In this document: in pieces, positions 31,761 through 58,291 of the stretch
How the letters are laid out: every line of letters begins with the position of its first letter
Position numbering within the stretch: position 1 is the stretch's first letter
Assembly (NCBI GenBank): GCA_964016885.1
Contig: OZ024740.1
Span: 149,358,001-149,422,000, forward strand
Direction of reading: 5' to 3'
DNA from: Eledone cirrhosa
Taxonomy: Eukaryota
Length of the DNA stretch: 64,000 nucleotides
Notes under the pieces: model-generated
Seen by the model: the letters and a program-made list of their open reading frames with translations, nothing else
The model's database searches: none
What the model was told of the DNA's origin: nothing
Made by a program: the position numbers and the translations under genes

Positions 31761-31797
<37 letters not shown>

Positions 31798-31800
<3 letters not shown>

Positions 31801-32334: not shown

Positions 32335-32386
<52 letters not shown>

Positions 32387-32394
32387 TTTATCCC

Positions 32395-32530
32395 GGGTTC
32401 AATCGGGGGTAACCACAGTAAGTAACTCAATACATAGCAGAGTATAAATATTTAATATAGAAATGGCTTCTACGGGACTAGAACTGTTTCATTCGAGAGA
32501 AACAGTTCTAGTCCTGTAGAAGTCATTTCT
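32395..32530. mobile_element. Non-autonomous PLE-type repeat (family also at about 10130-10245, 49574-49730 and 56515-56640)
   Basis: Shared gttcaatcgggggtaa(c/t)cacagta...tagaaatggcttctac...ctagaactgtttcattcg. This copy ends in a foldback. Confidence 0.7.
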
Positions 32531-32534
32531 CTCC

Positions 32535-32582
<48 letters not shown>

Positions 32583-34268: not shown

Positions 34269-34319
34269 TGACGTCAGCATGGTATATTAAATACTACCCC
34301 AGCCATTTCCGTTTCAGTC
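34269..34319 (+). promoter_or_regulatory. Candidate Pol II core promoter (CRE + TATA-like + Inr)
   Basis: Palindromic TGACGTCA (34269-34276), TATATTAAA (34283-34291) and TCAGTC initiator (34314-34319) about 31-33 nt downstream of the TATA-like box, in apparently unique sequence. Confidence 0.45.
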
Positions 34320-34712
34320 AACAGAGCACCATACTTCGGAAATTGCATATCGGTTCCTTTAGTTATTCGGCTGTTCACAATACTTTTGCAATTTGATGTC
34401 TAACCTCACTGAACATGCTTCTGTTTTCCAAATATACTAGAATGATAGAATTCAGAAAACTTCTTTTCCTGAACTACCAAAAGTTAACAAAAATAATGTA
34501 AAATGAACCTACATCTACATTTAGTAAAATATTATAAGATTTTAATAAAATAACGTAATTATTATGACGCTAAACTTGACAAAATACCATCTAAGAGAGA
34601 AAGTGAGAGTCTTGGCATGGTCATTCGTTTTGCTAAATATAACAGCCAAATCTCCTTCAATTCACACTACATTAATTTAAAGGAAATAACAAATTTGACG
34701 TTGCATTCATAA

Positions 34713-35060
34713 TAATCGTTTCTAGTTTTGGCACAAGGCCAGCAGTTTATTACTTCTACTTTATTTTATCGACCCCGTAAGGATGAAAGGCAAAGTTAAC
34801 TTCAGCGGGATTTAAACTCAGATCATAAAGGACCGTAACTGTATACTGCAAAGCATGGCGTCTGACCCATAATAATTGTTTCTACTTTTGGCACAAGGCC
34901 AGCAATTACCCAGTGCATTACTGGTACTTTATTTTATCGACCCCGTAAGGATGAAAGGCAAAGTTAACCTCGGCGGGATTTGAACTCAGAATGGCAAGGG
35001 CCGTAACTCTATGCGTCAAAGCATGGTGTCCGACCCGCTACCGTTACTGCCAATCCACCC
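34713..35060 (-). mobile_element. Two tandem tRNA-derived SINE copies
   Basis: About 34713-34870 and 34873-35060. Confidence 0.85.
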
Positions 35061-35108
35061 TAGCTCTAAGTAACAACTTCTGTGAGGAAGCGATATTACA
35101 TCTATCTG

Positions 35109-35175
<67 letters not shown>

Positions 35176-35672
35176 CTCTCCTTAATGCTATACATACACG
35201 CACACATACATGCATACATATATACAGATAAATTGCAGATATAGATACGCATATACAAATAAATATGCTTATAAATAAAAACAGTCAGAATACATAGATG
35301 TGCGTTGGTATACACTCCCCGATATATAAGTCGTTTCACTTAATTCAAATTGCTTCAGAGGTATTTTTCAAGATTGTAAATAATTTCTTATATACATAAT
35401 TTTCAGGTGGAATTTTGTTGTGGGGTAGAAAATGCGGTGGCTTGCTATCATAATTCTTTTTACTGGAAACAAATTCATTAACTTTTGAACTACTACTACT
35501 AGCGGCGAATTGAGAGAGTGTTGGATTAAATGCTTCGGCGTTCGGTTCGGCTCTCTGAGTTCAAATCCCGCCGAGATCAAATAATAAGTTTAAACAGCTG
35601 GAAAACTGCATGAATATTTCAGTATAAATTTCATATGGAAAAAAACACTTTCTACTGAGCTTACTTACTTAC

Positions 35673-35768
<96 letters not shown>

Positions 35769-35773
35769 TACAA

Positions 35774-36677
35774 TTAACAGTGCTGCGATCGAATGTGGCT
35801 TTTTAGCCCAGCCAATGATCTAAAATGTCTTGTGTAGAGTTGGCAACCAAAACATTCACTGGCAATAGCCGGCTGTGGTTGGAGTTCATGTACTTTTGCA
35901 TATCGTTTGAGCCCTCCTGCTGATCTATACTCTCTTCCACATGCTTGGCAGGCATGATGAGTAGCATCTCCAACAGCAGCCTGGTAGTCAATCACTGGTC
36001 TCACTTTATGACTGCGAAGATGACTTTTAAGTCCAGCTTTGCTGATGCAGAGTCTCACACAGACGTTGCATGTCAGCGCCATAGGCGGACCTTCGCTGTC
36101 TGGAAATGCAACAGCAATGCCCTTCCTCACATCCCTTTTTTATTTCTCGTATGCGATTCGAGATGCTTCAAAGGCAACTTTTCCCTCATATACAGTTTTT
36201 CTCCATTTATTACGATCAGCAGCTACGTCTTCCAATGTATCAGCAGATATGTTAGCGTCTTTCAAAGAGGCTTTCAACGAATCCTTATACCCCTTTTTTA
36301 GTTTATGTGGAGGTCATTTTCCTTTAACTAACTCTCCATAAAAGAGTTGTTTCGGTATTCTAGAATCCTTCATCCTGGCAATGTGACCGCTCCATCGATG
36401 TCTTTGCTTAAGCACAAGAGCTTCTGTACTGTCACACATAGAGCTTTCCAAAATCTCGACATCACTGATGTGGTCCCTCCAGTGAACGCCATGGATCCGT
36501 GTGAGACACATCTGATGGAAATGCTCCAATTGTTTAAGGTTGTGTCGATATGTGACCCAGGTCTTGCAGGCATAAAGGAGAGAAGAGATCACATATACAC
36601 CTTTACCTTTGTCTTCTTGCATATATCTCGCTGACCCCAGAGCCGCCTTTATAGCTTTCCGAAAGCATCACTTGCTG
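35774..36677 (-). mobile_element. 5'-truncated RTE LINE (3' end with three C2H2 fingers)
   Basis: Closely similar to 43746-44650. The stop codon is followed almost directly by (TG)n. Confidence 0.9.
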
Positions 36678-37081
36678 ATATACATACATACATACATACA
36701 TACATACATACATACATACATACATACATACATGTATGTGTATTTATACGTGTGTGTATAGTTAATTCCGCTTCACAGTCATGCGGATTTCATAGAGTGG
36801 TATCTCGGGTAAGCAATATATAACCTCATATCGACTCAATCAAACCCGAAAATGGATTTGGATTGGCGGAAACTGTGGATTGTATTTTATATTAAAATAT
36901 CTAGCATTGCCAGATATTGTACCACGCTAATTGTGTCAGAGAATTATGTTAAGGGCACATCAGTCTGTGAAATATTCAGTAGCATGCACGTTAATTTAAC
37001 GGCTTTGTAGTTCAGTTGATCGAAACACTAAATGCTCATCTTCGAAACCGATGGAGAATCCGTCATATTATATTATTGCAT

Positions 37082-37250
37082 TAGAGGGTCGGACGCCATG
37101 CTTTCCAGCATAGAGTTACGTCCCTTTACGATCTGAGTTCAAATCCCGCCGAGGTTGACTATGCCTTTCATCCTTACGGGGTCGATAAAATAAAGTACCA
37201 GTAATGCACTGGGTAATTGCTGGCCTTGTGCCTAACGTAGAAACAATTAT
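37082..37250 (+). mobile_element. tRNA-derived SINE copy
   Basis: Family consensus. Confidence 0.85.
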
Positions 37251-37482
37251 TTTCCTGATTACTATTGTCAGATTGTAGCTCTACCGGAATTCTTCCTCCA
37301 CAGTTGTAATCGATTATACCAACTTCGATACATTAGAGCTACTAATTTTATCGACTTCCAAAAAGTAAAAGGCAAAGTCGACTTGGGCTCCATTTAAGCT
37401 TACAACGCAATCGGACCTGACTAAACCGTACAATATATTTTGGTCATTACTCTATCCATACACTGCAGATGAATGTGGCCGT

Positions 37483-37553
<71 letters not shown>

Positions 37554-39054
37554 ACATGTGCGTGCGTGTGTGGGCGTGCGCGCGCGTTTGTTTTTGTGTG
37601 CGTATGCACCTGTGTACCTTAGCAGGCGAGAGGGATAGACAGATTGTGTGCATCAGTAAAGGAGAAGTTTGATTTAAAAGAAGTAAAATAAGAATATATT
37701 AGAAGAAAAACTGATAAATCATAATTTTTTTGAGGAGGCAAAACAAAATAAGTTTGAGTAGGCAAAACAAAATAAGTCAAAAACAGACTCATGAAACATT
37801 TTCAATAAACGTAATATCTCATGTGATTTGAACATTGCATACAAATTACAAGTAAATACAGTAGTTAAACATAAGTCTGGCATTGTTTCAATATCAAAGT
37901 TCTACATTTAATAGCGTTGTTTGACAAATTAACCAAATATTCTATTGACGTAAAAAATCGTTATGTTCAATGTAATGTACCGAAACGTGTGTGAAAAATT
38001 ACTGTAAAACATTCCTGTTTGCTATTGTATTTAAAGCTTTTAATGACCTGTCCGTATTAACTCAACAACAATGGAGTTGCGGAATCATTGGAGAACTGAG
38101 CTAAATGCATTTAAGTAGTTAGGTCAATGTTCTGAATTCCAAATCTGCCGAGTTGACGCTTACCTTCTATTGCGTCGAAGTCGGAGAAGCAATCCTAGAG
38201 ATGTATGAATATCCATTTAATCAATATATAATTTACAAATCTGTAAACATTTCACCTGCTAGAAATAGCAGCAATATCACTGCAAATCGCAAGCCTCTCT
38301 ACTAAAAATGAAAGGACATTGCCTGATCGCCCTTAAACATAGATCAGCCTAATATGAACTACTCTGGAGCTAAACAATAACAATAACAATAAAATCAATA
38401 TGTGGCCCATTTCGAAAGTAATAAGTGAGTACTGATTTTACTTAACTTTCTTTTCTCTGATAACAGATCTGAATGCTGATGTAAAAATATTCCAGAAACC
38501 AAAGTTTTGTATGTAAATTTGATAAATGCAAGATATTTTTACGCTTATTCCAGGTAAAAGTATAATACGACCATTTCTAGCGGAAAAATTAACGTTTTCC
38601 TATATAAATATTAGATTAATATCTACGGCATCATTTACGTGTGTGGGGTTCATGTGTGTATGTGCGAGCATGTGTGTGTGTCTGTGTGTGTGCGTGTGCT
38701 TGTGTGTTTGTATGTGTATGTGTGCGTGCGCGTGTGTATATGTGCGCGCAAGTATAATATTATTAAAAGTATTGCGAAGTTTCGACGGTAGATGCTTCTC
38801 AAACAAAGATGCTAGTAACAGGGAAACTGCGAAGTAAACAGTCAATAATAATAACAAATGCTATTTTGACTGTATAAAAAATATTGTGTCATTCAATAGT
38901 TACATGATTAATGTTTTTAGGTATTCGAACCTATGAACCCAATAAAATAAATGTTTAGTATGCATACATGCACACATACATACATACATACATACATACA
39001 TACATACATACATACATACATACATACATACATACATACATACATACATACATA

Positions 39055-41816
39055 AGATTCAGACGAAACCAAACATCAGTCTATAGAGATATGAAGGGCA
39101 AAATAATAAGTGTCACTGAGGCCCCATCCCAGAAAGACATAGATTCTTTTGGAGAAAAATATGGGGTGAAAAGAAGAATTTCAACCAAGATGCAGTGTGG
39201 CTAAGAGAAATCCGAAAGAACAATTGCTCCTACACTACAACAAAAACATACGAAATAAGTGAGGGTACCCTTGAGACTGTGATAGGAAAACTCCAAGATA
39301 AGAAAACACCAGGAAGAGACATGATTGTCGGCTACTGGTACAAAAAACTAATATTCTATCGGAGGTATCTTACTGACCTCTACCAACAAGTTCTTAAGGG
39401 AGATACACTTATACCAGAATGGTTGACATTAGCACAAACGTTATTGGTCCCCAAGAACAAAGACACCCACCTGGAAAAAAACTACCGACCCGTTGCATGC
39501 CAGAACCTGATGTATAAGATGTATACAGCCTGCCTGAACCTATTCCTCCAAGATCACTGCGAAAATAATAACATCATCATTAGATGAACAAGCAGCTGGA
39601 AAGAAAAGGGTTTGGGGATGTGCTGAACAACTCCTAATCAACAAAACTGCGATGTCGGAGGTGCGACAACTTAGTAGGAATATGACTACAGTCTGGCTGG
39701 ACTACAAGAAAGCTTTCGATTCTGTTCCCCACTCTTGGATGATATAGGCCCTCAAACTTGCTAAAGTCCAAGACATTATTGTCAGAGCCATAGAGAGGCT
39801 GTCTTCTTCTTGGGCTACTATCCTAAGGTTAAAGACAGAGAGGGAGGACTCTATTTTCACTGATAAAATAAAATATTGCAGGGGTATATTTCAGGGAGAC
39901 AGTCTCTCTGTGATATTGTTCATCTTGTCATTAAACACCTTGTCCTTTCTGCTCAAGAAATGTGAGGGATACATCATTGGCTCACAGGAGGACAGAAATA
40001 CGAACCTAACCCATAACTTCTTTGTGGACGATCTGAAACTCTATGCCAAGAACATGGATGGGATGAAGAAAAATCTTGACCTGGTTACAACGTTCTCAAA
40101 GGATATAGGAATGGAGTTTGGCCAAGATAAATGCTCATACATGACTGTAAAGCGGGGAAAAACAACAACCCAATCTAGCAACATTGTCATCAATGGTCTA
40201 ACTGTTTCACCGATATCTGATGAGGACTGCTACAGATACCTGGGGATAGATGAGAACATATCCTATAATGGTATCTGTAATAAAGAACGCGTAACCAGGG
40301 AATACTACACCCGATTAAGAAAGATCTGGTCATCGGAACTCTCTGCGCAAAACAAAACAGTAGCTCACAATGTGTTTGCTGTGCCTGTCCTAACACCAAC
40401 GTTTGGAATACTCAATTGGACGATCGACGAAATCCGAGCTGTTGATGTTGGAACTCGAAAAATACTGAACAACACCGGAAACTCCCACATCAACAGTGAC
40501 ATAGACCGCCTTTACTTGAAACGTAAGCAGGGAGGCAGAGGCCTAACATCAGTCCAGACAACATTTGAATGTCGCATCATATCTCTCCGACAACATCTAC
40601 GAACCTCGAAGCGTAGGAGCCCGCTTCTCGAGCAAGTCTATCTGCATGAAACAGATAAGATCATGAGAGTTGGGAAGGAACTCCTTGAAAGATATTCCCT
40701 GTGTGATAATCAAAAACTCACACCCAGAGATGTCGCTTAGCAATATCGCAGTGAATCCATGGATGAAAAACTGCATGCCTATCAGCAAAAAATCATGCAT
40801 GGATATGTTGCCAGGAAGCTCCAGAGTGAGAGTAATATAGATAAGGAAAGTAGTCTATCTTGGACCAACAACCGCTATATTGGCTCCCACTTTGAAGGAT
40901 ACGCTTTTGCAATCCAAGAACAGGAGATTAGCACGAAATACCTGATTCACAAAAGAGATAGGGATGCAGGCAAAACACCTAGATGTGGTAACAAGTGCAG
41001 ACTCTGCAGAACTAACATCGAGGATATCACCCATGTCATCAGCAGCTGCCCAAAGATGTCATCGCGGTACAATCTACCTATGAGGCATGATGTAGTGGCC
41101 AAAACACTGTACAATGCAGTTCGTAAAAAAGATAGCCCCGATAATAAACACATTAAAAGCTACAACAATGTGGAAGACATCCATGTACATAATATGAAAG
41201 AGTACTGGTGGAATGTTCCAGTAAAAACCCCAATAAAATGCAGGCATAACAGACCAGATATTATGATATGGGACAGGGAGAAGAATACATGCACAGTAGT
41301 GGAAATTAGCTGCCCAGCAGATGCCAATATAATATCAAAGATTAATGAAAAGGAGAATATTTATGCAGAACTGATGAGAAATCTGCAGATACTCCACCCT
41401 GATTACACCTTCAGATTTATGCCTGTGATTATTGGGGCACTGGGATATGTTAGTAACTGCCTCAATACAAATCTTGAGAAGCTAGGCTTCACAGGAACAG
41501 AAAGAACACAACTAGTTAGGAAATTACAAGTACAATCCATTAATGGAACAGTAAAAATATGTAAAACATTCCAAAAATTTTGCATCTAATAACTGCATAT
41601 ACTCATGTACAGATACAAAGCATATACACATGCACACATACAACTCATAACATACACATCCACACATACAATAACATCCATATCTACACAAACATGCATA
41701 CATACATATCTACCTAGTTGATGTTGTGTTAATTCCAATGAGAGAGTCTTGTGTCTATGTTAGAAACCGACTCTCTCTCTATTGGTAAAACTTTGTGAAA
41801 TTATAAAACCAGAAGA
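39055..41816 (+). mobile_element. Dong/R4-clade non-LTR retrotransposon (RT + CCHC + restriction-like endonuclease), 5'-truncated, in (TACA)n
   Basis: NYRPVAC, WLDYKKAFDSVPH, GIFQGDSLS, FVDDLKLY, CRLC...HVISSC, RHD and RPDI..E.SCP..K..Y. Frameshifts near 39150 and 39585, and an in-frame TAG at 40738-40740. Both flanks are (CATA)n. Confidence 0.9.
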
Positions 41817-41834
41817 ACATACATACATACATAC

Positions 41835-43420
41835 ATGGTGATGGCTGCCCCCTCGTTATCGAGTATGGCCATTGCACGATATACCATTATTAATAATTAT
41901 CATGCAATGCCTGTGCGTGAAGATATTTTTAAAGTGAGGTAAGACTGTGCACTGAGCCAATCCCACTCTCTGAGCGACAGTAGCTATAACCCAAAAAGAA
42001 GAAAAGATCAACATCATCGGTAACTACTGAGCCGCATGTTTTATATCGGAGTTATCCCAGTTTCCTGAGTTGCCTTCTCCTAGAAGAATGCCCTGACAAG
42101 GGCTAGGGATCCTTCACTCCCAGTGGTTTAACCGCGCGATCGGGTGTCCAGCCCGACTATTTCTATGTCCCCATAGACATGCACCCATGTATATACACAT
42201 ATACATATATACATACATATATATATATGTGTATATACATATGTGTATATATACACATGTGTATATACACATGTGTATATATACATGTGTATATACATAT
42301 TTACACACTTTTGAGTTCTTCCGCCCTTTGTCAGGTTTTGTTTTTTGTCCTGCAGCAGGGTGTCCAAAATCACCCTCCTCAACAAGTAAACTTGGTGGGG
42401 TTGCCGATTTAGTCGCCGACGACCCGACCATGCGACAGGTTGTCGGAGTTATCCCAGTTTTCTGATTTGCCTTCTCCTAGAAGAATGCCCTGACAAAGGC
42501 TAGGGTCCGTCACTCCCAGTAATTTAACCGCGCGATCGAGTATCCAGCCCGATTATTTCTATGCCGCCGTGCATATACATATATACATGTATATACATAT
42601 GTACATGTGTATATACATATTTACACATTTTTGGGATGGCCGTTGACATACATACACACATACATATATACATACACACATACATACATACATACATGGT
42701 GGCTGCCAACTCGTTTTCGAGTACGGCCATGACTTTATATCCATGTAGGAGAACCCCTACCGATACGCTGAACGAGTGTGACTTTTTAGTCCAGCCAGCG
42801 ACTTGAAAACTCTGGTACAAACACTACACCTGTGACAATCATTGACACATAGTGCTGGGCCCATGGCACCATGTGACGACAAGTGCTAAGAGATCTCCAG
42901 ATATAAAGCAATACCTGTGCCGTGAAGCTTTTATAGTGAGGAAGGGCACTGCACAAAGCCAGTCCCACTCTCTTAACCAAGATGATATTTACCAAAAAGA
43001 AGAACAAGCCAACATCATTGGATACCATCAGGGTTGCAGGTGTTATATCAGAGTTTTCCTTCTCCTAGAATTCTGCCTTTACAAAGGCTAAGGGGTCATC
43101 TCTCCCGGTGATTTTGGATGGCCATTGACTCTTAAGAGGTCCTTTGTCCTTTGACAGGTTTTGTTTTTAGTCCTGCAGGATGTCCAAAGTCACCCTCCTC
43201 ACCAAGAAACCTTGGTGGGGTTGCCAGTTTAGTCGCCAACGACCCGACCATGAGACAGGTTGTACTGGGATACATGTTACCAGTAGCACCAACTGGTGAC
43301 CTGACATAGATACATACATACATACATACATACATACATACATACATACATACATACATACATACATACATACATGATGATGGCTGCCCCCTCGTTATCG
43401 AGTATGGCCATTGCATGAGA
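41835..43420 (-). mobile_element. Cluster of non-autonomous RTE-related short elements with (TATG)n tails
   Basis: Recurring modules tgccttctcctagaagaatgccctgacaagggctaggg (42070, 42467, 48340) and ggctgcccctcgttatcgagtatggccattgca (41843, 43382). Confidence 0.65.
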
Positions 43421-43435
43421 AAGAAAAAAAAAAAA

Positions 43436-43474
<39 letters not shown>

Positions 43475-43496
43475 AATAAAAAGAAAAAAAAAAGAA

Positions 43497-43528
<32 letters not shown>

Positions 43529-43745
43529 GCATACACATACACACACACACACACTCACACACATATACACACACATACATTAATAACAATAATAATAATA
43601 ATAATCATAACAACAATAATAATAACGACAACAACAATAATAATAACGACAACAACAATAATAATATACATATACATATATATATATACACACACACGCA
43701 CACACATAAGCATATCTACACGCACACACACACACACGATAGCAA

Positions 43746-46700
43746 CTAACAGCGCTGCGATCGAATGTGGCTTTTTAGCCCAGCCAATGATCTAAAATGT
43801 CTTGCACAGAGTCGGCAACCAAAACATTCACTGGGAATAGTCGGCTGTGGTTGGAGTTCGTGTACTTTTGCATGTCGCTTGAGCCCTCCTGCTGATTTAC
43901 ATTCTCTACCACATGTTTGGCAAGCATGATGAGTAGCATCTCTAACAGCAGCCTGGTAGTCAACCACTGGTCTTACTTTATGACTGCGAAGATGACTTTC
44001 GAGTCCAGCTTTGCTTAGGCAGAGTCTCGCACATACGCTGCATGTCAGCACCATAGGAGGACCCTCGCCGTCTGGAAGTGCAACAGCAATGCCCTTCCTC
44101 ACATCCCGCTTTACTTTCTCGTATGCGATTCGAGATGCCTCAAAGGCAACTTTTCCCTCATATACAGTCTTTGTCCATTTATTACGATCAGCAGCAATAT
44201 TCTCCCATGTATCAGCAGAGATGTTAGCGTCTTTCAGAGAGGCTTTCAAGGAATCCTTATACTTCTTTTTTGGTTTATGTGGTGGTCGTTTTCCTTTAAC
44301 CAACTCTCCATAAAAGAGTTGTTTTGGTATTCTAGAATCCTTCATCCTGGCAAGGTGACCGCTCAAACGGAGTCGTTGCTTAAGCACAGGAGCTTCTATA
44401 CTGTCACACATAGAGCTTTCCAAAATCTCGACATCACTGATGTGGTCCCTCCAGTGAACGCCATGGATCCGTCTGAGACACATCTGATGGAAACGCTCCA
44501 ATTGCTTAAGGTGGTGTCGATATGTGACCCAGGTCTCGCAGGCATAAAGAAGACAAGAGAGCACACATGCCCTGTACACCTTTACCTTTGTCCTCCTGCA
44601 TATATCTCGCCGATCCCAGAGTCGCCTTTCTAGCTTTCCGAAAGCATCACTTGCTTTCCTAATCCTAAGTGAGATTTCACTGTCAAGGTTGCTGTATCGA
44701 TTGACAGTGCTTCCCAGGTAGACAAACTGATCAACCACTCCAAGTCGTTTGCCATACACATAGATGTTTGGTTCAGTGTACTGCTTACCAGGGGCAGGTT
44801 GGTACATGACGACGGTTTTCTTGAGACTGACAGTCAGACCTAGGGTAGTGCAAGCGTCAGAAAATGTATTCAAAATGTGCTGCATATCACTCTCTGTGTG
44901 CGCTACAAGATCGCAATCATCTGTATACAAGAGGTCTCTTATGATTGATGTAAATACTTTTGTCTTCGCAGCAAAGCGCCTGATGTTAAATATGCTGCCT
45001 GAGGTTCGATATCGGATGTAAATATGCTGCCTGAGGTTCGATATCGGATGCAAAGTATATGGCAAACAGGGTCGGTGCTGGAATATCCCCCTGTTTCACT
45101 CCATTTTTTACTGAGATAGGCTCCGACATGTTACCCCCGACATTAACCCAAGCCTTCATGTCGTCATGGAAAGACCTAACTAAAGCAAGGAACTTATCAG
45201 GGCAACCAAGTTTCTGGAGAACCTTCCACAATGCATCTCTGTTAACAGTATCGAAAGCTTTTGTCAGATCGACAAAAACCTGATACAGATCCAAGCCTTG
45301 TTCCATGCACTTCTCCTGGAGCTGTCTAGCTGAGAAGATCATATCAGTAGTGCCGCGTCCAGCACGAAAACCAGATTGACTTTCAGGAAGAACACAATCT
45401 GCAATGTGTGTCAGCAGACGGTCCAGAAGCACCCTACATAAAACTTTCCCTACGACAGAAAGCAATGATATACCTCTGTAGTTCCCACAGTCGTTCCTGT
45501 TACCATTTCCCTTGTACAAGACCACCATTACTGCATCTCTCCAGTCCTCAGGTAGGGATTCATTAGCCCATATCCTGCCAAACAAAGAGTGAAGATGTTG
45601 CAGGAGTCTCTCACCACCATATTTTAGGAGCTCAGCATGTATGCCATCCATACCTGGAGATCTTCCACTGTTCAGCTTCGAAATAGCCACTGCAACCTCC
45701 ACAAGCGTCGGAGGTTCTGCGAGAGCTACTTTCACAGGACTTTCTGGAATGAGATTGAGGAAATCTTCACTGACGACAGACGGCTGATTCAAAAGATCAT
45801 CAAAGTGCTCTCGCCACCTTCGTGGAATTCCTTGTGAGTCACGAAGAAGTTCTTTGCCATCCTTGCTGCGAAGCGGTGCCACCAGAGAAGAAGACGGTCC
45901 ATAAACCTCACGTAAGAGACTGTAGAAAGGTTTGTGTTATTGGAATCAGACGCAGTTTGTATCTCACCAGCCTTCTCACTCCACCACTGATCCTTCATCT
46001 GAGAAAGACTCCGCCTAACACGGGATTTTACATCCCTGAGTTCCTCATGCAACGTATTCCTCTGCTGTGGTTTTGCCGTCAAGTAGCGTGACAGAGCACG
46101 CCTCTTATCAGCCAACAAGTCTTCTATATGTACATCATTCTCATCAAACCAGTCCTGATGTTTCCTCTGCGCCAATCCCAGAACACGCCTGCCTACATCA
46201 TAAACCGACTTTTTAAGGGTCGGCCAATCCTCACCAAGATCTGCAGCCTGCATCTCTTCTTCCAATGTCCTCTTCACATTTTTATCCTTAAGACGAGCAG
46301 CATTCAATCTTTTGGGCAGGGCAATACCAGGAGCCCGGATTTTACGTTTAGTGATTAGTTTCACTTTTGCGCGTACCAGGCGGTGGTCCGTCCAGCACTC
46401 AGCTCCACGAAGAACACGAACACACTGCACATCCTCTCTGTCACGCATCCTGACTAGGACGTAGTCCAAAAGATGCCATTCCTTAGATGCAGGATGCATC
46501 CATGTGGTCTTGAATTTGTTCTTTTGTTGGAACATGGTGTTGGTAACACACAGATCCAGCTCCTCACACATCTGCAGCAGGAGCATACCATTGCTGTTAC
46601 ACTTTCCCACCCCATGCCTTCCGATTACATTCCATGTTTTAAAATCCCTACCCACTCTAGCATTAAAGTCACCAAGCACGATGACTTTGTCTGCCTGAGG

Positions 46701-47276
46701 GATATTTCTTAAAACACCTTTCAAGGCATTGTAAAAGGACACCTTTTCCTCATCGACAGAACTCATAGTTGGAGCATACACACTCACTAGGGTAGCATAT
46801 CTTCCCTTGTCCAGCGGAACTCTCATGGACATAAGACGCTCACTAATCCCTACTGGGAATTCTTCTAATTTGTTCACAAGCACAGTCTTAACAGCAAATC
46901 CTACCCCAGCCTCTCTTCTGGTTCCTTCATCTCTTCCTTTCCAGAAGAATGTATATTCTCCACAAAATTCCGTAAGATGACCATCTCCAGCTAGCCTCGT
47001 CTCAGATAAAGCCACGATGTCAAGATCGTAACGTCGAAGCTCCTTTGCAACAAGAGCGGTCCTTCGTTCAGGACGCCCCAAGGAATCCCTGTCAAGCAGC
47101 GTCCGTACGTTCCAGAAGCCAAGACTAAATGCCTTGTTTGGCTCTATTACAATGGCACGATGACGAGCGGGCCCAGGCTGTGATAACCTGGGGCCCCTGC
47201 CCTTATTGCCAATGATCTTTTTTGTTCCAGAACCTAAATTGCCAATTATCTCTTTTATATTGTTCTGGAACATCAT
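43746..47276 (-). mobile_element. Near full-length RTE-clade LINE (APE endonuclease + RT + 3 C2H2 zinc fingers), disabled
   Basis: GFWNVRTL, LSETRL, GDFNARVG, LDYVL and TDH (endonuclease); NYRGISLLS, FVDLTKAFDTV, GVKQG and LLYTDD (RT). Frameshift near 45935 and a 32-bp tandem duplication at 44987-45050. Confidence 0.93.
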
Positions 47277-47316
47277 TGAATTGAAAAAAAAAAAAAAAGA
47301 AAAAAAAGTAATAATA

Positions 47317-47385
<69 letters not shown>

Positions 47386-47387
<2 letters not shown>

Positions 47388-48120
47388 GGAATGCTAATGG
47401 CTGCGCAGGAGCAGGCCCTCAAAACGAAGTGGTTGAAGCACCATATTTACAAGGAGGAGGCTAGCCCACTGTGCAGGATCTGTGGAGAGAGAGGAGACTG
47501 TGGCTCACATTGTGTCCGAGTGTAAACACCTAGCCCAGACCCACTATAAGGGCTGGAGACACGATGTGATGGGCAGGGTGATCCACTGGCACCTGTGCAA
47601 AGTAAACAATTTACCACATTCTGAGAAATGGTATGAGCATAGGCCAGAGGCGGTGATGGAGAACAATCAGGTGAAGGTGCTGTGGGATTTTAGGATACAG
47701 ACGGACAAAAAACTGGAACACAATAGACCTGACCTGGTGGTTGTGGACAAAGAAAAAAGATCGTGTCTGATTGTGGATGTGGCCTGCCCTTTCGACACGA
47801 GAGTGCAAGAGAAGGAGAGGGAGAAAATTAACCGATACCAGGACCTAAAGTGGGAGGTGAAAAGGATTTGGAACTGCCATGAAGTCGAAGTGATCCCGAT
47901 TGTCATAGGCGCACTGGGGACTATCTCCAAAAGTTTCCAGGGATGGTTAAAGAAAATCGGCCCCTTCACGCTTTTTGGAACGCTTCAAAAGGCATGCTTG
48001 CTGGGAACAGCAAGAACCCTCCGATACGTCCTGAATATCTGAGGCTGCAGGTAGTGGCTTGATATTCATTCCAACGGACTTTCCAGTTAACCAACATCAA
48101 TGACTGAGATTCAAGGAATA
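47386..48120 (+). mobile_element. 3' fragment of a second Dong/R4 element inserted in (TAA)n
   Basis: AAQEQAL, CRICGEREETVAHIVSEC, RHD, RPDLVV..DVACP..K..RYQDL and LLGTAR. (AAT)n on both sides. Confidence 0.9.
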
Positions 48121-48164
48121 ACAACAATAATAATAATAATAGTACACTATTAATAATTATTAAT

Positions 48165-48445
48165 GCACTCGTGCAATGCCTGTGCGTGACGAATATTTTT
48201 AAAGTGAGGAAAGACTGTGCACTGAGCCAATCCCATTCTCTGAGCGACAGTAGCTATAACCCGAAAAGAAGAAAAGATCAACATCATCGGTAACTACTGA
48301 GCCGCAGGTTTTATGTCGGAGTTAAACCAGTTTCCTGAGATGCCTTCTCCTAGAAGAATGCCCTGACAAGGGCTAGGGGTTCTTCACTCCCAGTGGTTTA
48401 ACTGCGCGATCGGGCATCCAGCCCGATTATTTCTATGTCCCCGCG
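48165..48445 (-). mobile_element. Non-autonomous RTE-related short element
   Basis: Near copy of about 41895-42175. Confidence 0.7.
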
Positions 48446-48711
48446 CAAAAAAAAAAAAAAAAAAATCACTTATTGACACTTATACGTACGACACACACAC
48501 GCATTCATATGCGCGCACACAGCAATACTCATACATACAAACAAACACACACACACACGCTACTCTACTCACTTACACATATATATATATATATATATAT
48601 ATTACCGTCATTACTGATACAAGATTACAAGATTATGTTAACTGTTGACTTTCAAGAGTTTGTATAGTTGAAGCCGATCGTACTACAGTCCAGTATTATT
48701 ATAATTGCTTT

Positions 48712-48855
48712 ACAGCATAGAGTCACGTCCCTCCACGCTCTGAGCTCAAATCTCGCCGAGGTCAACCTTGCCTTTCATCCCCACGGAGTCAACAAAAGAG
48801 AGTACCAGTGATGCGCTGGGCCAGTCGCTGGATCCGTGCCAAAAGCAGAAAAATT
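48712..48855 (+). mobile_element. Diverged SINE copy
   Basis: Core gcctttcatcc...gtaccag. Confidence 0.7.
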
Positions 48856-49043
48856 ATTATTAAAGTTGTTTTCTTAAGGCCCGGTCGCTGGTGATGGTGA
48901 TGGCGGCGGCGGTAGTGGTGGTGGTGGCAGTTGATGTTGTTGTTGTGCTGTGTGCGTGTGTGTTTTGTTATTTTGAGTTTTTTCTTTTTTTTTTCTTCCT
49001 TTTTTTTCCCTTCCCTTTCTTTTTTTTATCATACATACATACA

Positions 49044-49074
<31 letters not shown>

Positions 49075-49079
49075 TTATA

Positions 49080-49550
49080 TACAAAGTACGACCACTTCTT
49101 AGAACAAAAAAAACAGACATTGGCAAAGATGTGTTATTGATGTTGCTGCCATTAATGATGGTCTGGATGCTTGGCAAACAGGCCCAATGAAGAACATCAG
49201 TGTCTTGTGTGTGAGATCTTGAAGATGGAGCACAGACATTGTTGGTGGAAACGTTTAAGGTGCTGTATATGCCCACAGTATGTTCTCCATGTCTCACATC
49301 CATACAGCAAGGTTGTAAGCATACATGCTTGATACACTTCAATTTTCGGGCGTATACTGATGTCTGACTATGAACACAGGCGCTTCACCAGCTTCCCAAA
49401 GACATCAGAATCTTTAGACAACGGGTAGTTTACCTTTTCGTAAAGGATACTGGTTCTGGAGAGAGTACTACCCACGTAGACGAACTTATACACAACCTTC
49501 AATATTTTCTACTTTACAGATATAGATGATGGAATATATGGCTTATTAGA
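49080..49550 (-). mobile_element. Degenerate RTE RT 3' fragment
   Basis: LLYGCETWRTY..HIQHLKRFHQQCL and FVYVGSTLS motifs on the minus strand. Confidence 0.7.
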
Positions 49551-49573
49551 CGTACTTACTAACATGCACACAC

Positions 49574-49623
49574 ACATCTACAGGACTAGAACTGTTTCAT
49601 TCGTATGAAATCATCAGGAATGT
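49574..49623 (-). ncRNA. Type I hammerhead ribozyme
   Basis: acauuc-CUGAUGA-uUUC(auac)GAAu-GAAA-CAG(uucuaguc)CUG-U-A/gaugu. An inverted partner with a mutated core (GUGAUGA) lies at 49670-49720. Confidence 0.7.
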
Positions 49624-50302
49624 AGTATAAATAGCGCGGTTGGTTGATGGATAATATGTAGATTTCCGGACATTCGTGATGATTTCATACGAATGAAACA
49701 GTTCTAGTCCTTTAAAAGTCATTTCTATATATACAGTAGTATTAGAGTGTTTTCAAACGCCTACTGATTCAGCGTGATCAGGACTGATTGATCTCGGGTT
49801 CACCAATAAAAGAAGAAAAAATTTATGTTTTCTCGCAGAATATGGGGTATGCTATCTCTGAAAGACGTTTAATGAAAATTTAAGCACCTAACCATAAATT
49901 CAAACCGTACTGTTGTTTATTTAATCAAAGTGCATAATTCTTCTTACGCCAGTTTGCCTAACTCACGACTAGTGACTGATCCAAACACATTAATCCTCCT
50001 CAAGGAGAAACGAATTTATCGGTAATTTCGAAAGTTTCCGTTTACGGTGATGATTGCAATGGTGAGTCACAATTCATCATAATTTGTTGACTCTGAACGG
50101 CGAGCGATATCTGATAACAACTTATTGAATACTACATAACATAAACATACATTTTCGTTTTCTTGAAATCAACTTATAAAATACTTACTCTTGTGATTTA
50201 GTTCGTTAGAAAAGTGGTGTCAATATTGTCTGTGTCGGTCTTCAATTAGATCGGTGTACAGAGTAGACCTATGTCGTTTAGATTATCATAAGAAATATAA
50301 TT

Positions 50303-50462
50303 GACGCCATGCTTTGCAGCAAAGAGTTACGGCCCTTTATGGTCAGAGTTCAAATCCGGCCAAGGTTAACTTTGCCTTTCATCCTTACGGCGTCGATAAA
50401 ATAAAGTACCAGTAATGTACTGGGTAATTGCTGGCCTTGTGCCAAAAGTAGAAACAATTATT
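50303..50462 (+). mobile_element. tRNA-derived SINE copy
   Basis: Family consensus. Confidence 0.85.
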
Positions 50463-51405
50463 ATAAGGAATATAAATATTTTAAGTCAATTATTGTAATT
50501 GTAGTTACAGAAGGAACATAGAGATTGAGGTTAATCTAGAGGAGTTAATCTCTGTGTAGAGAATTGACAATTATCTGTGATTTTAGGATGATTAATCATA
50601 TCGAGAAATATCGACGTTAGATGCATCAGTTTACATACATGTGTATGATATGCGTTTGAGTGAGTGTCAGAAAGTGACCGTGGGGGAGTTGCAGTGAATC
50701 AATATTGCGAATTTATTTCTTCGAAATAGCTTTACGTTCGTTATATTTTAGTTAAAAGCATGAATGTCACAAATTAACATTTCTCCGCTATTTTGTATAA
50801 ACATAATGGACGAATTGATTGAACCGTTAGAACGTCACATAGAAACTTATGAATATTTGTTCTGGCGTTTCGAGTTCAAATCCCACCAAGGTTAACTTTG
50901 ATTTGCATATTTTCTGGAGAGACAGAAAATTGCTTTTAATATATATTTTTTTTTTTAGCAAGTTATCGGGATATTAATGACATATATTTGAATTATTCTA
51001 AGTCTACACATTTAAACACATAGTATAATAAGTCCTTTTAGATAAAGGTGGCTATAAGTGTAGCAAGAAATTCATTTGAATTTTACTTTTGATATTGTTT
51101 TATTTTTATTTAATTAATATTGATTCAAATATTTTGGGGGCTTACGTGAAAGACTGGAAGTAGGTACACGTCAAAGATAATCCTATTTGTTTTAACCTTT
51201 TCATTAATCATCTAAATCTTTACGTTTTTATTGATCATATTGCAGTTTCAATTTCAGTGGTCTTATTTGTGCCAGTCTCCAATCTGGTACTTTCTCAAAC
51301 CCACGAAGACTAGCCTTTTTTAGAGGCGGCCTTTACTCAACTCGTCGTAGCTACGTCACTGGGTTGTGAGAGTTTTCTTGGAAGCCACAAAGTCATTTTA
51401 AACTA

Positions 51406-51856
51406 CAGTGATACCTCGCAATACAAGTTCAATTCATTCCATAACCGAACTCGTTTTACGATTTACTCGTTCTACGATTTACTCGTTTTACAAATCACTT
51501 TTCCCTATTGAAATTAATTAAAATATAAATAATTCGTTCCAGCACCACCACCCCCAACCACCAAAAAATCATTTTTATGGGTTTTAAAACAGAAACGGTG
51601 CTGTTATAAAATAATAGCACGAAACGCTCAAAACTAATTTTTAAAAGCAGTGGGAAAACACAATAGGAATGTTGCCACAACAAGATAAGTACATGAACTG
51701 AGCGAGCGGAGGCTGATTTTGTTGGGAGAGCGTGTGCAAGCTGAGCACCGACTAGCGGTCGCTTCTACTTGTACTACAAGACAAAAATTTGCATGAGCCT
51801 CGTCTTGTACCGCATATACTCGTACAATGGGGCACTCGTACTGCGAGGTTCTACTG
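51406..51856. mobile_element. Tigger/pogo-like MITE
   Basis: TA|CAGTGATACCTCGCAATACAAG ... CTCGTACTGCGAGGTTCTACTG|TA terminal inverted repeats with a TA target-site duplication. Confidence 0.75.
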
Positions 51857-53559
51857 TATTAGGCGAAGAATTGGCAGAGTCACTACAGCACAGAACAAAA
51901 CGCCTCCACTCTCTGAGTTCAAATTTCGCCGCAGTCAACTTTGCCTTTCATTCTTTTGGGGTCGTTAATATAAAGTACTATTTCATGGTGGTAAATCGTC
52001 GAAATTGCGAGAGCATCGGATGACATGTCCTGCGAGTGTGTTCTGAGTTCAAATCTCGTTGTGGCCTATTTGGATAGTAGACGCTCAGTTGAACCCACCA
52101 CTTGGCCCTTGGGTGCACTTACCGGAGTTCTTTTTGTTGAATCATTCAGGGCAGGTCTCCGGTGAGAGGAGATCCTGAAATAGAGTCATGAAGCACTACT
52201 ACTACTACTAAGTATCTAACTAAACCTAAAAGACGGATAAAAAGTAAAGCCGACTTCGGTCGGATGTGAACTCAAAGCATCAGATATTTTGCTGTAAGGT
52301 ATTTTGTACGGTGCACTTCCGATTCTGCCATTTTGCCTGCGGAGCGCAACTGAGATATAAATCCTAGACTATAGGTAATATAGTAATCATAGAATAAAAT
52401 AAAGTGAACTGATTTAGAATGGTGCCTGTAAAAAGCTGTTACCACAGTATAAGTAAATTTGTTGGTAGTATGAAAACTACTATGCAACAGTATGGAAATA
52501 GTGTAGAATGATATCTGTGAACGACTACTAATCAAAATGTATCATAGATTTATGAGAATTTAAGACATGAATTCCGATATAAATTCATAGTGGAATTTTG
52601 TAATGTTAAAACAAAATGCGAAATGTAGTTTAGTGGGAGTTATTGGTTATATGAAAAATCAATTAAGATTTATCGATTTTAAAGTTTTAATATTTAAGAA
52701 ATATTTCACATGAAGAAGTTAGTAATTTCTCGATTTGACGAAAAAGTAAAGAGTATTAAATTTACATAACTTGTCAAATTTCGTAAAATTATAACAATTA
52801 TGTAATTATATGAGTGCAATGTTTAAATTCATGAAATCATAATTTCATCAGCAATGCACATAATCATCATAACGTTTAGCATAATCACCGTCATCATTAT
52901 CAACACCAGTAGCATCATCGTCATCATCATCATCACAATAACAGCAACATCACTTACCATCAAAATTATCATCCACATCAGAATCATTATCCTCCTCACA
53001 CATTTAGTTATAACTTGTTGCATCAAAATCACTAATAATATCATCAATACATTTAGCGGTAGGAAAGAGCAATGACCAGAGTGCTGTTAATTACTTTGAC
53101 ATTAATTACATAATCAGATGTTTTATAAATTATACATTCACGCATACAGTTTTCAAATGTTTCCTATTAACATTCTTTCCATTAAATAACAACATTCAAT
53201 TTTTCACAAGAATTTGATGAAGGGTTACTCCAGGCTTTGGCACTAATAAAATATATTCAAACAATTTACTCTGAAATGTTTTATTCGATAGATTTTTCTT
53301 TATTATTTGGTCAAATATTTATTTCGATTATATGATAAAAGAGGATATCAAATTTAGCAACATTTATTAATAGTTGCGTTTTTGTTGGTTGGGCCTACAC
53401 CTACGTAGTCATGCTTATGGAGGAAGGTGGAAGCCATCGGAATATATTGAATTAATTTCGATATATTACAAATAACTATTTTATAGTTCCCTGAAGAATG
53501 AAAACTAAAGCCCATGCCTTGACGAATTGGATTTAAAACAATGATAAAGATATTGAATG

Positions 53560-54950
53560 GTGCAGTTTCAAATCCAACATTTTATTGTCTTCACTATCAA
53601 TACCTGACGTAACAGACCTATGATGAAAGGCGTTCTAGCTTTGACCATCCCGATTTTTTTAGGCAGTGTATACCCTGAAAAGCATTATTCAATGTGTCTG
53701 TTTTTATGATAGTAGACTTTGAGTGAGATTTAACTGATATTTCATCATGAGGAGCAGACAAGTGATCTTGTCCTGTGAGAACCATCAGATGGATATACAG
53801 ACAGGGATAGCAGGAAAAGAAATTACATTGATAACCTGTGTAGGTTGTGTAAGAGAGCTCAGAACGCAGATGATAGATAAAAAGAGAGTTGGGCGACCTG
53901 GTAGTCAGCATATATCATGAACTTCTATTTCATGAGTATGTGTATAAGCTTGAGTAATCAGTTCTATTCGTTTCATCTAATGTTAGACTGATTGGGTTTT
54001 ATAGTACGGTTATTGCTGAGTCACTGTAATGATGTAATGATTGAACTGTTCACGCAGAATCATTCAGCAGAAAATCCTCCAAATTTGTATTAAGTTTTTG
54101 TATAAAGTTTTGCCATAGACTGGTATTGGATCAGCCATTTATGAGCGATGTGTGGTAATTAATTCTATGTAGCTTTACCATGTCATTTGACATTCGCTTA
54201 TTCTATTGGTAAATATTTCTTGACATTGTTATTTATATGGATAATCTGATATGCTTGTTAAATGCTCTCTGTCTGACAAATCTCAAAATTATATGGTCTC
54301 CCACTTTCTAGAACTTGCTATCTGGTAACATCACTCCTGTGAAGGCGCTTTCACGTGGTCAAACGAACAATATTAGTAGACATATCTTTCTCAAATCACA
54401 TACTACAATCTTCAAAAAAGAAATCGCTCCACATTGTAATCAGATATACATAAGATGGAGTTGCCACCGCGGAAACCGCTTTGATTATAATTTTGCTCGT
54501 TGGAGAATATCTGGAATTTAACAAAATCAATAACAAATATTGATACCGATTGCATTTCTTTTTGTGTTTTCTTCTATCTTTCAACTGAAAGAAAGAAAGG
54601 AAGACTGCGCGTGCGAGAATTCATTTGAAGTCACTGACAGATTTGATACGAATATTTAGAACGTCTTTTAAGGAAGCAGGCCGTGTTATGTGACAGAATC
54701 GTACACCTTGTGAAGAGCGAAGTGAAAAGTTCCTGCTGGAACATGCCATCAATGATTTTAAATTATATTTATTTTTAGTTCATTACCAGCAAATGGATTG
54801 TTGGTGTTATTCTTTATGTAGTGCCAAGTTAATTCTGCTTGAAAGACATATGGGTAGAGGCGACAAGACTATTAAGGTCAACTAGGCAACCGAGGCTGCA
54901 GACATCAGAGAAGTGCATTACTGAACCATAAAGTATCAAAGTGGTATACT
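53560..54950 (-). mobile_element. Highly degenerate Penelope-like RT/endonuclease remnant
   Basis: Minus-strand AVATPSYVYL.M resembles the PLE RT motif B (GT..APSYANL.M). Many stops. Confidence 0.45.
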
Positions 54951-56417
54951 AATTTGTATAATTAAATAAAAAATATATAATAATATCCTGCCATCAATAA
55001 ATAAATCTTTAAACATATTTCCCGCGAAACAACATTGTAGAAATATAAAAAGCGGTGAGTCGTTCGGTATTATGACTTGTCACGTGATTTGGCGTGGGTG
55101 AGTGTAGACTGTGTAGTGAGAAATGCAGGCTCAGCAATGTTTTAGTGTGTCAGAAGCGCATGACTGTGAGAAGGTGTACATAGCAGAGTTAGCATAGAGA
55201 AATATATAGCCATATGCCGGCTGTGCCTATGAGGTATCATCTGAGTGAGATTTTGTTAGTATGTATGACGAACAACCGCATTCGTGTGCTGTAACATCTA
55301 GACTGCCAACTGACGTGCACATTGTGTTTCCGTAAAGCATTTTACACAGTGTATAAAGTAACCACTACTTTTACTATTTTAGAAGAGCAAAAACATCGTC
55401 GACGATCACTTGAATAAAGTGAATCACATTATCTCTCCTTACTAAATTTACATGTTTTTTTTTTCTTCAACTACTGCAAAAATAAATATGGCAATGGCTT
55501 CTTAGATGTTAGTATTGAGTTGGAATTCTTTTACTATTTGGGTTGGAATTCTTTTACTATTTTCTGAGTGTTTTAAATGACTTTCCATCAAGTAAATACT
55601 AACAATACCACTGGAAAATGACGTTTGCTTAGATTGAAGATTCAATAGAATACAAAGGCATTGTTTATTTTGGAGTAGTACGTCTTCAACCTGTTGGGAA
55701 ACATTAGACTATCACTTTACTCCGTTTCCAATTTTCTAACTCATGTTGTGTTTGAAAATAGTATGTGTGATGTTTAATTGTTACTATAATTATAGTTAAA
55801 AGTAATAAAAGTGTAAAGGGATAACAATACACATGCTAGAAAACGAATGTTTAGATAGGGCAAAAGATATATGTGTATGAATGAGTGTCTGTGAGTGCGT
55901 GTGTATGTATGCATGTTATTTTTATTTGAATATAGGCCCTAATCTTTATATGTCTGATTCAATCCAAGGACCTATATTTAAATAAAAGTACTCTACATTT
56001 AATATGTTTTGAGAATTTACTGAATAGTGTTCTTCTTAGAGTCTGATCAAATTTACACCCATACACTCATATGCATGTGTGTGTTTGCGCATCTGTCTGT
56101 ATGCATATCTGAAGGCAAGTGGCTTCTGTGTTTAAGTTGCTGGGTTCACGATCGTAAAATCGTGAGTTCGATTCCTGAACACATTATTTCACGTTGCTCC
56201 AGTTTACTAATCTGAAAAAATAAATAGTTGTACCTCAGATTTCAAAGGTCTAGCTTTCCCACATACCGTGACATGGTAAATCTCCCCGAGAATTAAGTTA
56301 TAGGTACATGGGCCTCTCCAATGTTAGCCCTCTGCACGTTAATTTCACGAGCAGGCTTTTCTTTTGAATGAATAACTGGAACCCTCACCGTCGAAGCCGA
56401 CAGATGTCTAAGAATAC

Positions 56418-56515
<98 letters not shown>

Positions 56516-57169
56516 GGGTTCAATTGGGGGTAACCACAGTACGAAAGATACTCAATACATTAGTTGTGTGTGAACATCAAACTTAATATAGAAATGGCCT
56601 CTACAGGATCGAACTGTTTCATTCGAAAGAACTTATTTCCATAGCCATTTATATATTAAATTTTACATATATATATGTATCTGTATGATACCTCTCAGCA
56701 TATGTATGTTGCTATCTGCGTATGTATGTTAAACCGCTTTAACGTTCTTGATTGTATAGTGATATTTAAAAGTTACTACTTCGATAGACTTCCTGATTTC
56801 CATCCAGAATGATGATTATTTATATTATATTCTCAACATTTCACTATTCCTGGCTAACTGTCAATAATCTAGCCAATTTCGTTATGTATAGGCTATATGC
56901 AGTGGTATAATTCATTGTTGTTAGAAACGAAAGAACTGCCCTTTGGTATCCTAAAGTGCTTGATATAACTCAAGTGGATACAATATGCAATGACTGTAAA
57001 GCTTCTACAAGAACAACTGTAAATAAACAATATGGATGAAAAAATAAACAGAATATAATGTGATGTGTATATTACTTATCCATTATATACTATACTACCA
57101 TATGCTACAAACTATGTTTTTATATGATCTTATTGCTTATACCTTGCACAATTACCATCAATATCTACA

Positions 57170-57195
57170 TTTTCATTCTTTCTTTCTATTTACAG
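57170..57195 (+). promoter_or_regulatory. 3' splice acceptor of the neuropeptide coding exon
   Basis: ttttcattctttctttctatttacag| lies 34 nt upstream of the ATG, implying at least one upstream non-coding exon. Confidence 0.75.
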
Positions 57196-57229
57196 ACATT
57201 GACCAATTTTGAATAGATTTCGTGCCACC

Positions 57230-57856
57230 ATGATGAAATCAATACTTATAATGTCAGCACTGTTTTCTCTAATGATTCCAAATATGGTTCTATGCAGGAA
57301 TCGACCTGACACTTTAAACTCAGTTTTTCTTTCTAATGATTATGAAACTGATGATAAAAAACTATCTGCCTACGACGAAGGCACATTTCACAGTAATTTT
57401 GATGACAGTGGGGGAGTTACTGGTGAAGATACTAAAACTAATCAGCTTATATATAAACTTCAAAATGACATAAACAGGAATGGCGTCGAAGATGATTTCA
57501 CTAAGAATACCGACGAATACTACTATAATAACGGCAATGGTAATATTGCTACGAAAGGTGATGGAGAGAAGAAATTGAAATTGTTAACGCTGTATCCAGC
57601 TCTGCAGAAAAAGCAAGATACTTCTACGAACCAAGATAATTACAGCATAAAGAAAGACGGCTTTGATAACGAACCAATCTTTGACCCTGCGTGTAGATGT
57701 TGGGTTACTAATAGCGATAAGCATTTGATGAATAGACGTCAGGGTTACTCAATAAATGCGCCACTTACGGCAATCGCAAGAATTTTGGAAGAATCACGAA
57801 AGCGTATGGAGAAAAATAAAATCAGGGAAAAACTTATAGACATCGGTCGGAAATAA
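57230..57856 (+). CDS. ELH: ELH/DH44/CRH-family neuropeptide precursor (208 aa, single coding exon)
   Basis: ATG in a perfect GCCACCATG context, preceded by a polypyrimidine tract and tacAG acceptor (AG at 57194-57195). Hydrophobic signal peptide MMKSILIMSALFSLMIPNMVLC, acidic spacer and dibasic sites. C-terminus RR-QGYSINAPLTAIARILEESRKRMEKNKIREKLIDI-G-RK-stop has an amidation signal and matches Aplysia ELH ISINQDLKAITDML...LRQRLLEK-amide by eye. The track ORF starts at an upstream TTG (57209). Confidence 0.85.
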   Translation: MMKSILIMSALFSLMIPNMVLCRNRPDTLNSVFLSNDYETDDKKLSAYDEGTFHSNFDDSGGVTGEDTKTNQLIYKLQNDINRNGVEDDFTKNTDEYYYNNGNGNIATKGDGEKKLKLLTLYPALQKKQDTSTNQDNYSIKKDGFDNEPIFDPACRCWVTNSDKHLMNRRQGYSINAPLTAIARILEESRKRMEKNKIREKLIDIGRK

Positions 57857-58291
57857 GAAATCCCAAATAATAAAATGAAGAAATTGTGGGAAATAGTAAG
57901 ATTTAATAGGAACTAAATGTAAGCCGACGATACATATGTATCCATGCAAATAATTTCAGACCATGATGTTTGTAAATATGAAACAAGAATTTAGATAACA
58001 TATTCAGGTTGACTGATATAATTCCAATATTCTTACATAGGAATACATACATATACACACAGACACACTAACATACATGCACATACGCATGCACACATAT
58101 TCACACATATGTAGGTATGCACATTTGCACATATATTTAAACATATCTTTATTTATATTTTCGTGTGTAAATACAGTTGTGCAATGTGCTCATATATCTA
58201 TATATATATATATGTATGCTTGTGTCTAAATACGTTCACGTTCGCACGTATACTTAAATGCTTCTCGCATACATATATGTATCTGCATACA

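Follow-up and report, generated by a model that had tools for sequence, protein, structure and literature searches.

A two-exon gene of the octopod Eledone cirrhosa that very likely encodes an ELH/DH44/CRH prohormone

Do octopods possess a hormone of the ELH/DH44/CRH family? According to a 2019 survey (PMC6425005), which covered O. bimaculoides proteins, the cuttlefish central nervous system (CNS) and the Euprymna genome, ELH/DH44 was not found in any cephalopod database and its loss was inferred as likely. A 2021 article (PMC8398477) repeats this absence and reasons from it that gamete release outside gastropods may not depend critically on ELH. The question is raised by a coding frame of Eledone cirrhosa that an earlier note had assigned to an ELH/DH44/CRH-type prohormone, and which we analysed within the window, the whole 64-kb stretch of DNA that contains it.

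A spliced gene with a non-coding first exon

The DNA of the window is AT-rich, of animal type and interspersed with TA/CA microsatellites. When the 1.8 kb around the coding frame was base-shuffled 2000 times, no shuffle contained 208 codons in a row free of stops (0/2000). The start codon had been described as lying in a Kozak context; the sequence GCCACC-ATG has the A at -3, but position +4 is an A rather than a G.

Four runs of one study, none of them recorded as RNA, contain the stretch and were mapped to positions 56560-58030. A 151-base contig from run X4 matched 57194-57304 without a difference and was preceded by 40 non-matching letters. The 30 printed letters of this loose 5' end correspond exactly to positions 3110-3139 of the window (chance expectation 0.00), after which the genomic sequence reads AG and then GTATTG (donor AG/GTATTG); position 3141 is therefore joined to 57196 in the transcript. 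The acceptor consists of a pyrimidine tract and CAG at 57193-57195; the earlier note had predicted it from the sequence, and it is the one used by the X4 contig, in a transcript spliced from the exon ending at 3141. The junction is supported by one contig (depth 2.8), and the type of the run that it comes from is not on record. A second X4 contig (562 bases) covers 57495-58030 and continues past 58030. No cover by X4 contigs was found at 57310-57494, and within 56560-58030 runs X1-X3 did not cover the coding frame; these gaps were not weighed as evidence. An AATAAA sits 12 bases after the stop codon, but it was not taken to be the sole poly(A) signal, since the X4 contig extends beyond 58030. 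The octopus gene is real and spliced, and consists of two exons (Table 1).

The CRE-like octamer and the TATAA ahead of the donor suggest a possible promoter; however, the + strand of the window holds 25 CRE-like sites and the arrangement of a CRE followed by TATAA occurs three times in the window, both strands counted, so this reading is weak. An ATG at 3070 starts a 16-codon frame that closes inside exon 1 (3070-3120) and may belong to the transcript, depending on where transcription starts. Upstream of exon 1, a stretch of about 80 bases at 1186-1290 is, by eye, repeated in inverted orientation about 500 bases on, at 1717-1800.

Table 1. Features of the gene and of its predicted precursor (positions in the window)
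Feature	Positions	Strand	Remarks
CRE-like octamer, possible promoter element	3013..3020	+	consensus match, one mismatch
TATAA, possible TATA box	3040..3044	+	about 100 bases ahead of donor; consensus match only
Non-coding first exon, 3' part	3100..3141	+	5' end unmapped; 3100 inferred from 40-letter loose end
GT-AG intron in 5' leader	3142..57195	+	54,054 bases; X4 contig junction; retroelements and microsatellites inside
Second exon, entire CDS and 3' untranslated part	57196..58030, continuing beyond 58030	+	X4 contigs
Coding frame	57230..57856	+	208 aa; ATG 57230, stop TAA 57854-57856
Predicted signal peptide, aa 1-22	57230..57295	+	hydropathy; cleavage site by eye; 18-19/22 identical in orthologues
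Acidic spacer (pro-region), aa 23-168	57296..57733	+	26 D/E per 146 aa; 113-117/146 identical in orthologues
RR, aa 169-170, predicted convertase site	57734..57739	+	invariant in 4/4 octopod sequences
Predicted mature 35-residue ELH/DH44/CRH-type peptide	57740..57844	+	basic, pI 9.8
Internal RKR within peptide, aa 190-192	57797..57805	+	invariant in 4/4 octopods
G-R-K-stop (amide-donor Gly, basic pair, stop)	57845..57856	+	invariant in 4/4 octopods

The window contains 34 frames of at least 110 codons. Seven long frames from the intron were scanned with Pfam: six corresponded to retroelement proteins and one had no Pfam match; by eye, the unscanned frames among the 34 are microsatellite or retroelement frames. 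A Ty3/Gypsy-type LTR retrotransposon pol lies on the + strand of the intron at 16905-19984, in three consecutive frames with protease, RT, RNase H and integrase, and is interrupted by a frameshift and a stop. The frame without a Pfam match (539 codons, 24918-26537, + strand) resembles, by eye, a Penelope-type RT that ends in a GIY-YIG-like region. A LINE occupies three frames on the - strand at 43746-47393; it encodes endonuclease, RT and C-terminal C2H2 fingers, and its 3' end recurs as a second, shorter copy at 35774-36667 (- strand). Fragments of another non-LTR element lie at 39120-41589 and 47437-48042 (both + strand), with an RT identified by Pfam and, by eye, a restriction-like endonuclease end. 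Closer to the second exon, at 56583-56680, there is a short repeat of very high copy number, where X1-X3 contigs reach depths in the thousands; it is probably a SINE or similar.

Precursor layout and conservation in octopods

The precursor consists, in order, of a signal-like start, an acidic spacer, RR, 35 residues, G-RK and the stop. The earlier note had read the end of the frame as RR-[35 aa]-G-RK-stop with the peptide at 57740-57844, and this was recovered exactly; the signal peptide that it had also proposed agrees with the hydropathy profile. The Kyte-Doolittle maximum is 2.47, in 11-residue windows starting at aa 4-7, as against a best value of 1.13 beyond aa 25, and this peak (aa 4-17) is the sole strongly hydrophobic stretch of the precursor and fits a signal peptide of about 22 residues. 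The spacer is polar as well as acidic; it contains a pair of basic residues (aa 127-128) and a CxCW motif (aa 155-158). The pair is KK in the E. cirrhosa precursor and KR in the other three octopods, followed by a Gln, and the D-P-x-C-R-C-W motif in the spacer portion aa 127-168 (57608-57733) is invariant in 4/4 octopods. A cut at aa 127-128 could yield a 40-residue spacer peptide, possibly co-released. For the 35-residue peptide in its pGlu/amide form, the computed monoisotopic mass is 4078.3, and a sequence-based calculation gives a hydrophobic moment of 0.50-0.54 over residues 4-23. No second copy of the peptide gene was found within the 64-kb window.

Orthologues of equal length were identified in O. 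bimaculoides (XP_014781244.1, LOC106876985, UniRef100_A0A0L8GGD3; 84% identical) and O. sinensis (XP_029635498/9.1, LOC115210874; 83%), together with a third octopod relative, Logan protein P0002 (78%). All four octopod sequences keep both cleavage sites, the amide Gly and the internal RKR. The peptide is more conserved than the spacer in O. bimaculoides (34/35 vs 117/146 identical, one-sided Fisher p 0.008) and in O. sinensis (34/35 vs 114/146, p 0.004). P0002 shows no such extra conservation (25/35 vs 113/146); its peptide changes are mostly conservative, and it is the one of the three orthologues that does not keep the N-terminal Gln. The lack of this Gln in P0002, the internal RKR and the non-coding exon 54 kb upstream are observations beyond the earlier note.

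That the 35-mer would be conserved in other cephalopods was borne out within the octopods, where it is 34/35 identical in two species, but P0002 has 25/35 and no squid or cuttlefish sequence was obtained. The searches for relatives relied on exact 5-residue words and yielded no orthologue from squid, cuttlefish or other molluscs, the matches (2/81, 2/4547 and 0/122 candidates) being all octopod. A phmmer search of 1.84 billion representatives gave only one octopod sequence and one chance repeat protein. Short divergent peptides lie below the reach of such searches, and the blank outside octopods is therefore weak and is not evidence of absence. One candidate, P0004 (E 8e-5), was rejected as a relative, as it is a repeat protein that matches the CxCW stretch only. 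The earlier note had expected such a gene to be annotated only as 'uncharacterized'. This is the NCBI label of the O. bimaculoides and O. sinensis orthologues, but UniRef names the O. bimaculoides protein 'Corticotropin-releasing factor domain-containing protein', which we take to be an automatic label.

Relationship to the ELH/DH44/CRH family

The CRF/ELH profile search that the earlier note had named as a check came out negative: none of the six queries matched the Pfam CRF or ELH models at E values up to 10. In our view, this missing match reflects what the models can detect no less than where the peptide belongs. A sub-threshold match of P0002 to the Pfam model Afi1 was dismissed. PDB sequence searches returned no CRF-family chain, only chance helices with E values of 0.34 or worse. 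In the ESM Atlas, where recognition was 1987, below the tool's mark of 2300, and where the borderline scores are, by the tool's own calibration, taken as leads and the two queries as one source, the whole protein had a cluster named 'diuretic hormone 44' at rank 2 (0.90, 175 shared features), between an unnamed arthropod cluster at rank 1 and a urocortin-3-like cluster at rank 3 (0.88). PF00473 is present in 78% of the rank 2 cluster, and 15/30 hits belong to the set. With residues 165-208 as the query, CRF-family clusters took ranks 1-3 (0.87, 0.85 and 0.83), above NPY-type (0.80) and calcitonin-type (0.76) clusters; among the ten best named hits of this peptide query, only four were in the CRF family.

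The strongest evidence for membership comes from setting the peptide, by eye, against molluscan peptides published in Supplementary note S2 of PMC6425005, over the 33 positions that begin with the conserved Ser and end with the amide Gly. Five peptides were chosen as the best or best-known in that list. Identity reached 15/33 with oyster peptide 1 (one 5-residue gap), 13/33 with chiton peptide 1 (one gap), 13/33 with ELH of the limpet Lottia (at both ends), 12/33 with peptide 1 of the scaphopod Graptacme (gap-free) and 11/33 with Aplysia ELH; the bivalve second peptides and the annelid and nemertean peptides listed there matched less well than these five. The earlier note had put forward a likeness to gastropod ELH; judged by eye, peptide 1 of oyster, chiton and scaphopod, and limpet ELH, resemble the octopus peptide more than Aplysia ELH does, and the octopus peptide is at least as close to the oyster, chiton and scaphopod peptides as to gastropod ELH, a gastropod-only clade in PMC6425005. 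It carries the S-[ILV]-x-x-x-L-x-x-[LI]-x-x-x-L start and the L-x-x-x-amide end. A column pattern from the molluscan peptides, drawn up after the octopus peptide had been seen, had a single match in the six-frame translation of the window (127,996 residues), the octopus peptide itself, and none in 1,000,000 precursor shuffles; three of the four octopods match it fully, and P0002 fails at one position.

Like the first peptides of oyster (ELH1), Acanthochitona, Graptacme and Antalis in PMC6425005, the octopus peptide is basic. It shares with these non-gastropod first peptides an S-[IL]-[NT]-x-x-L-x-x-[LI]-A-x-x-L start, an R/K-rich middle and an L-x-x-x-G-basic-basic end, and Crassostrea gigas ELH1 has, by eye, an RKR at the same offset. 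Unlike them, it has a Tyr preceding the Ser and a Pro at the fifth position, the latter found otherwise only in the third scaphopod peptide of that list, and the non-gastropod DH44/ELH precursors given there contain two or three peptides, whereas the octopus precursor contains one, after a 146-residue spacer. One peptide per precursor is the arrangement of gastropod ELH (Aplysia ELH, Lymnaea CDCH and Lottia ELH). The coding sequence of Aplysia ELH is unbroken after a leader intron, as in the octopus gene. By eye, 7/13 N-terminal positions are identical with the listed Aplysia ELH and 7/12 of the last positions with Lottia ELH. However, the octopus peptide is three residues shorter from Ser to Gly than gastropod ELH, nothing follows its basic pair (no acidic peptide), and its precursor lacks bag-cell-peptide repeats.

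Insect DH44 and vertebrate CRH/urocortin (PF00473) have a signal, a spacer and a single C-terminal amidated helix-forming peptide, an arrangement that is also predicted for the octopus precursor; the G-basic-stop end and an S-I-x-x-P-L-like start are shared, and DH44 and urocortin clusters were among its highest-ranking, if borderline, language-model neighbours. The layout of two exons, the first of them non-coding, is that of vertebrate CRH as well. These peptides are 38-46 residues long, as against 35 in the octopus, and the octopus peptide, unlike the DH44/CRH members, is below Pfam PF00473 detection.

Two readings deny such a hormone altogether. Three of the four runs left the frame uncovered, as might be expected if it had arisen by chance or were a decayed copy, but the canonical splice sites are used, no shuffle equalled the frame in length, and the frame is intact in 4/4 octopods with invariant processing sites; the splice and the orthologues refute this reading, the probability of which we consider negligible. 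The peptide could also be an octopod-specific amidated helical peptide outside ELH/DH44/CRH, or of another long-peptide family, with a convergent likeness, as the lack of HMM support from Pfam or PDB, the finding of relatives in octopods only and the similar appearance of helical amidated peptides in language-model features would allow. Convergence appears improbable, since the length and both ends match the published molluscan peptides listed position by position, in one case without a gap. RxRF/Y-amide marks NPY/NPF and a cysteine pair marks calcitonin; the octopus peptide has neither the C-terminal RxRF/Y-amide nor a cysteine pair, and its length is double that of PDF. For the prohormone assignment of the earlier note, the precursor anatomy, the splicing, the stronger conservation of the peptide than of the spacer in two of the three orthologues and the language-model and by-eye matches argue in favour, and the lack of a Pfam CRF/ELH match argues against. 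We are therefore highly confident, as far as comparison of sequences can take us, that the octopod precursor belongs to the ELH/DH44/CRH family. It is very likely an octopod ELH/DH44/CRH prohormone, probably acting on a CRF-type receptor.

Putative receptor, physiological role and the reported absence

In neurons, the signal peptide would direct the precursor into the secretory pathway, where a convertase would cut at RR, a carboxypeptidase would take off RK and PAM would convert the Gly into the amide; the N-terminal Gln, which is absent in P0002, may cyclise to pyroglutamate. The mature peptide would form an amphipathic helix, the amidated end of which would bind the outer domain of the receptor, while its S-I-N-x-x-L end would trigger Gs and cAMP. 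An extra cut at the internal RKR is possible and may also give a shorter, 19-residue N-terminal form. Two-step class B receptor binding with cAMP output is established for CRH and DH44, and N-terminal fragments of oyster ELH reportedly activate the oyster receptor. It seems to us very probable that this two-exon gene gives rise to a 208-residue precursor, likely secreted, that is cut to a 35-residue amidated ELH/DH44/CRH peptide predicted to activate a CRF-type class B receptor.

ELH triggers ovulation, egg deposition and the arrest of feeding in Aplysia and Lymnaea. The octopus peptide may be a functional egg-laying hormone in the same sense, released from central neurons at maturity and causing ovulation, egg deposition and the cessation of feeding; the earlier note had raised egg laying, along with post-reproductive physiology, as a conceivable role. 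This is possible but doubtful, since our protein searches returned no orthologue from squid or cuttlefish, the cuttlefish CNS sampled at spawning gave no ELH-like sequence (PMC6425005), and ELH activity had been studied only in gastropods as of 2021 (PMC8398477). Alternatively, its main job may be non-reproductive. The chances appear close to even that it is a DH44/CRH-like regulator of feeding, gut, heart or stress, or of the balance of salt and water. A CRF-type receptor and CRF-like immunoreactive neurons are reported for octopus in PMC5736919 and PMC6522055, with no ligand named there. CRF-like immunoreactivity in cells of the gastric ganglion, optic lobe and peduncle complex (PMC5736919) and the receptor transcript in the white body and heart (PMC6522055) agree with such a job, as does the suggestion by the authors of PMC8398477 of a function in stress or ion balance for oyster ELH. 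However, the antibody was made to vertebrate-type CRF and may miss the octopus peptide, and the higher expression of the receptor in females (PMC6522055) also fits a reproductive link. The egg-laying and the feeding, osmotic or stress roles may overlap, and our best single guess is a neuroendocrine role linking reproductive state to feeding. It is unlikely that all parts of the broadest reading hold together, namely that an unreported cephalopod ELH/DH44/CRH gene overturns the published loss, supplies the missing ligand of the CRF-type receptor and triggers egg laying along with the cessation of feeding in brooding females.

We found no literature naming the octopod orthologues or reporting a cephalopod or octopus ELH, and a piece of the octopus peptide was absent from the supplements of PMC6425005 (partly covered) and PMC8557429. 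On balance, we lean towards the view that the gene has gone unreported as an ELH/DH44 precursor. The octopus gene is not a new kind of system. As judged from its sequence, it very likely contradicts the published absence of ELH/DH44 in cephalopods, at least for octopods, and its value is raised by this absence having been claimed in print. A defined 35-residue candidate ligand could fill the ligand gap of the octopus CRF-type receptor. The peptide would make two standing questions testable, namely which signal sets off egg laying and the brooding fast of octopus, and whether a CRH-type stress or feeding signal exists in cephalopods, which would matter for their welfare and aquaculture.
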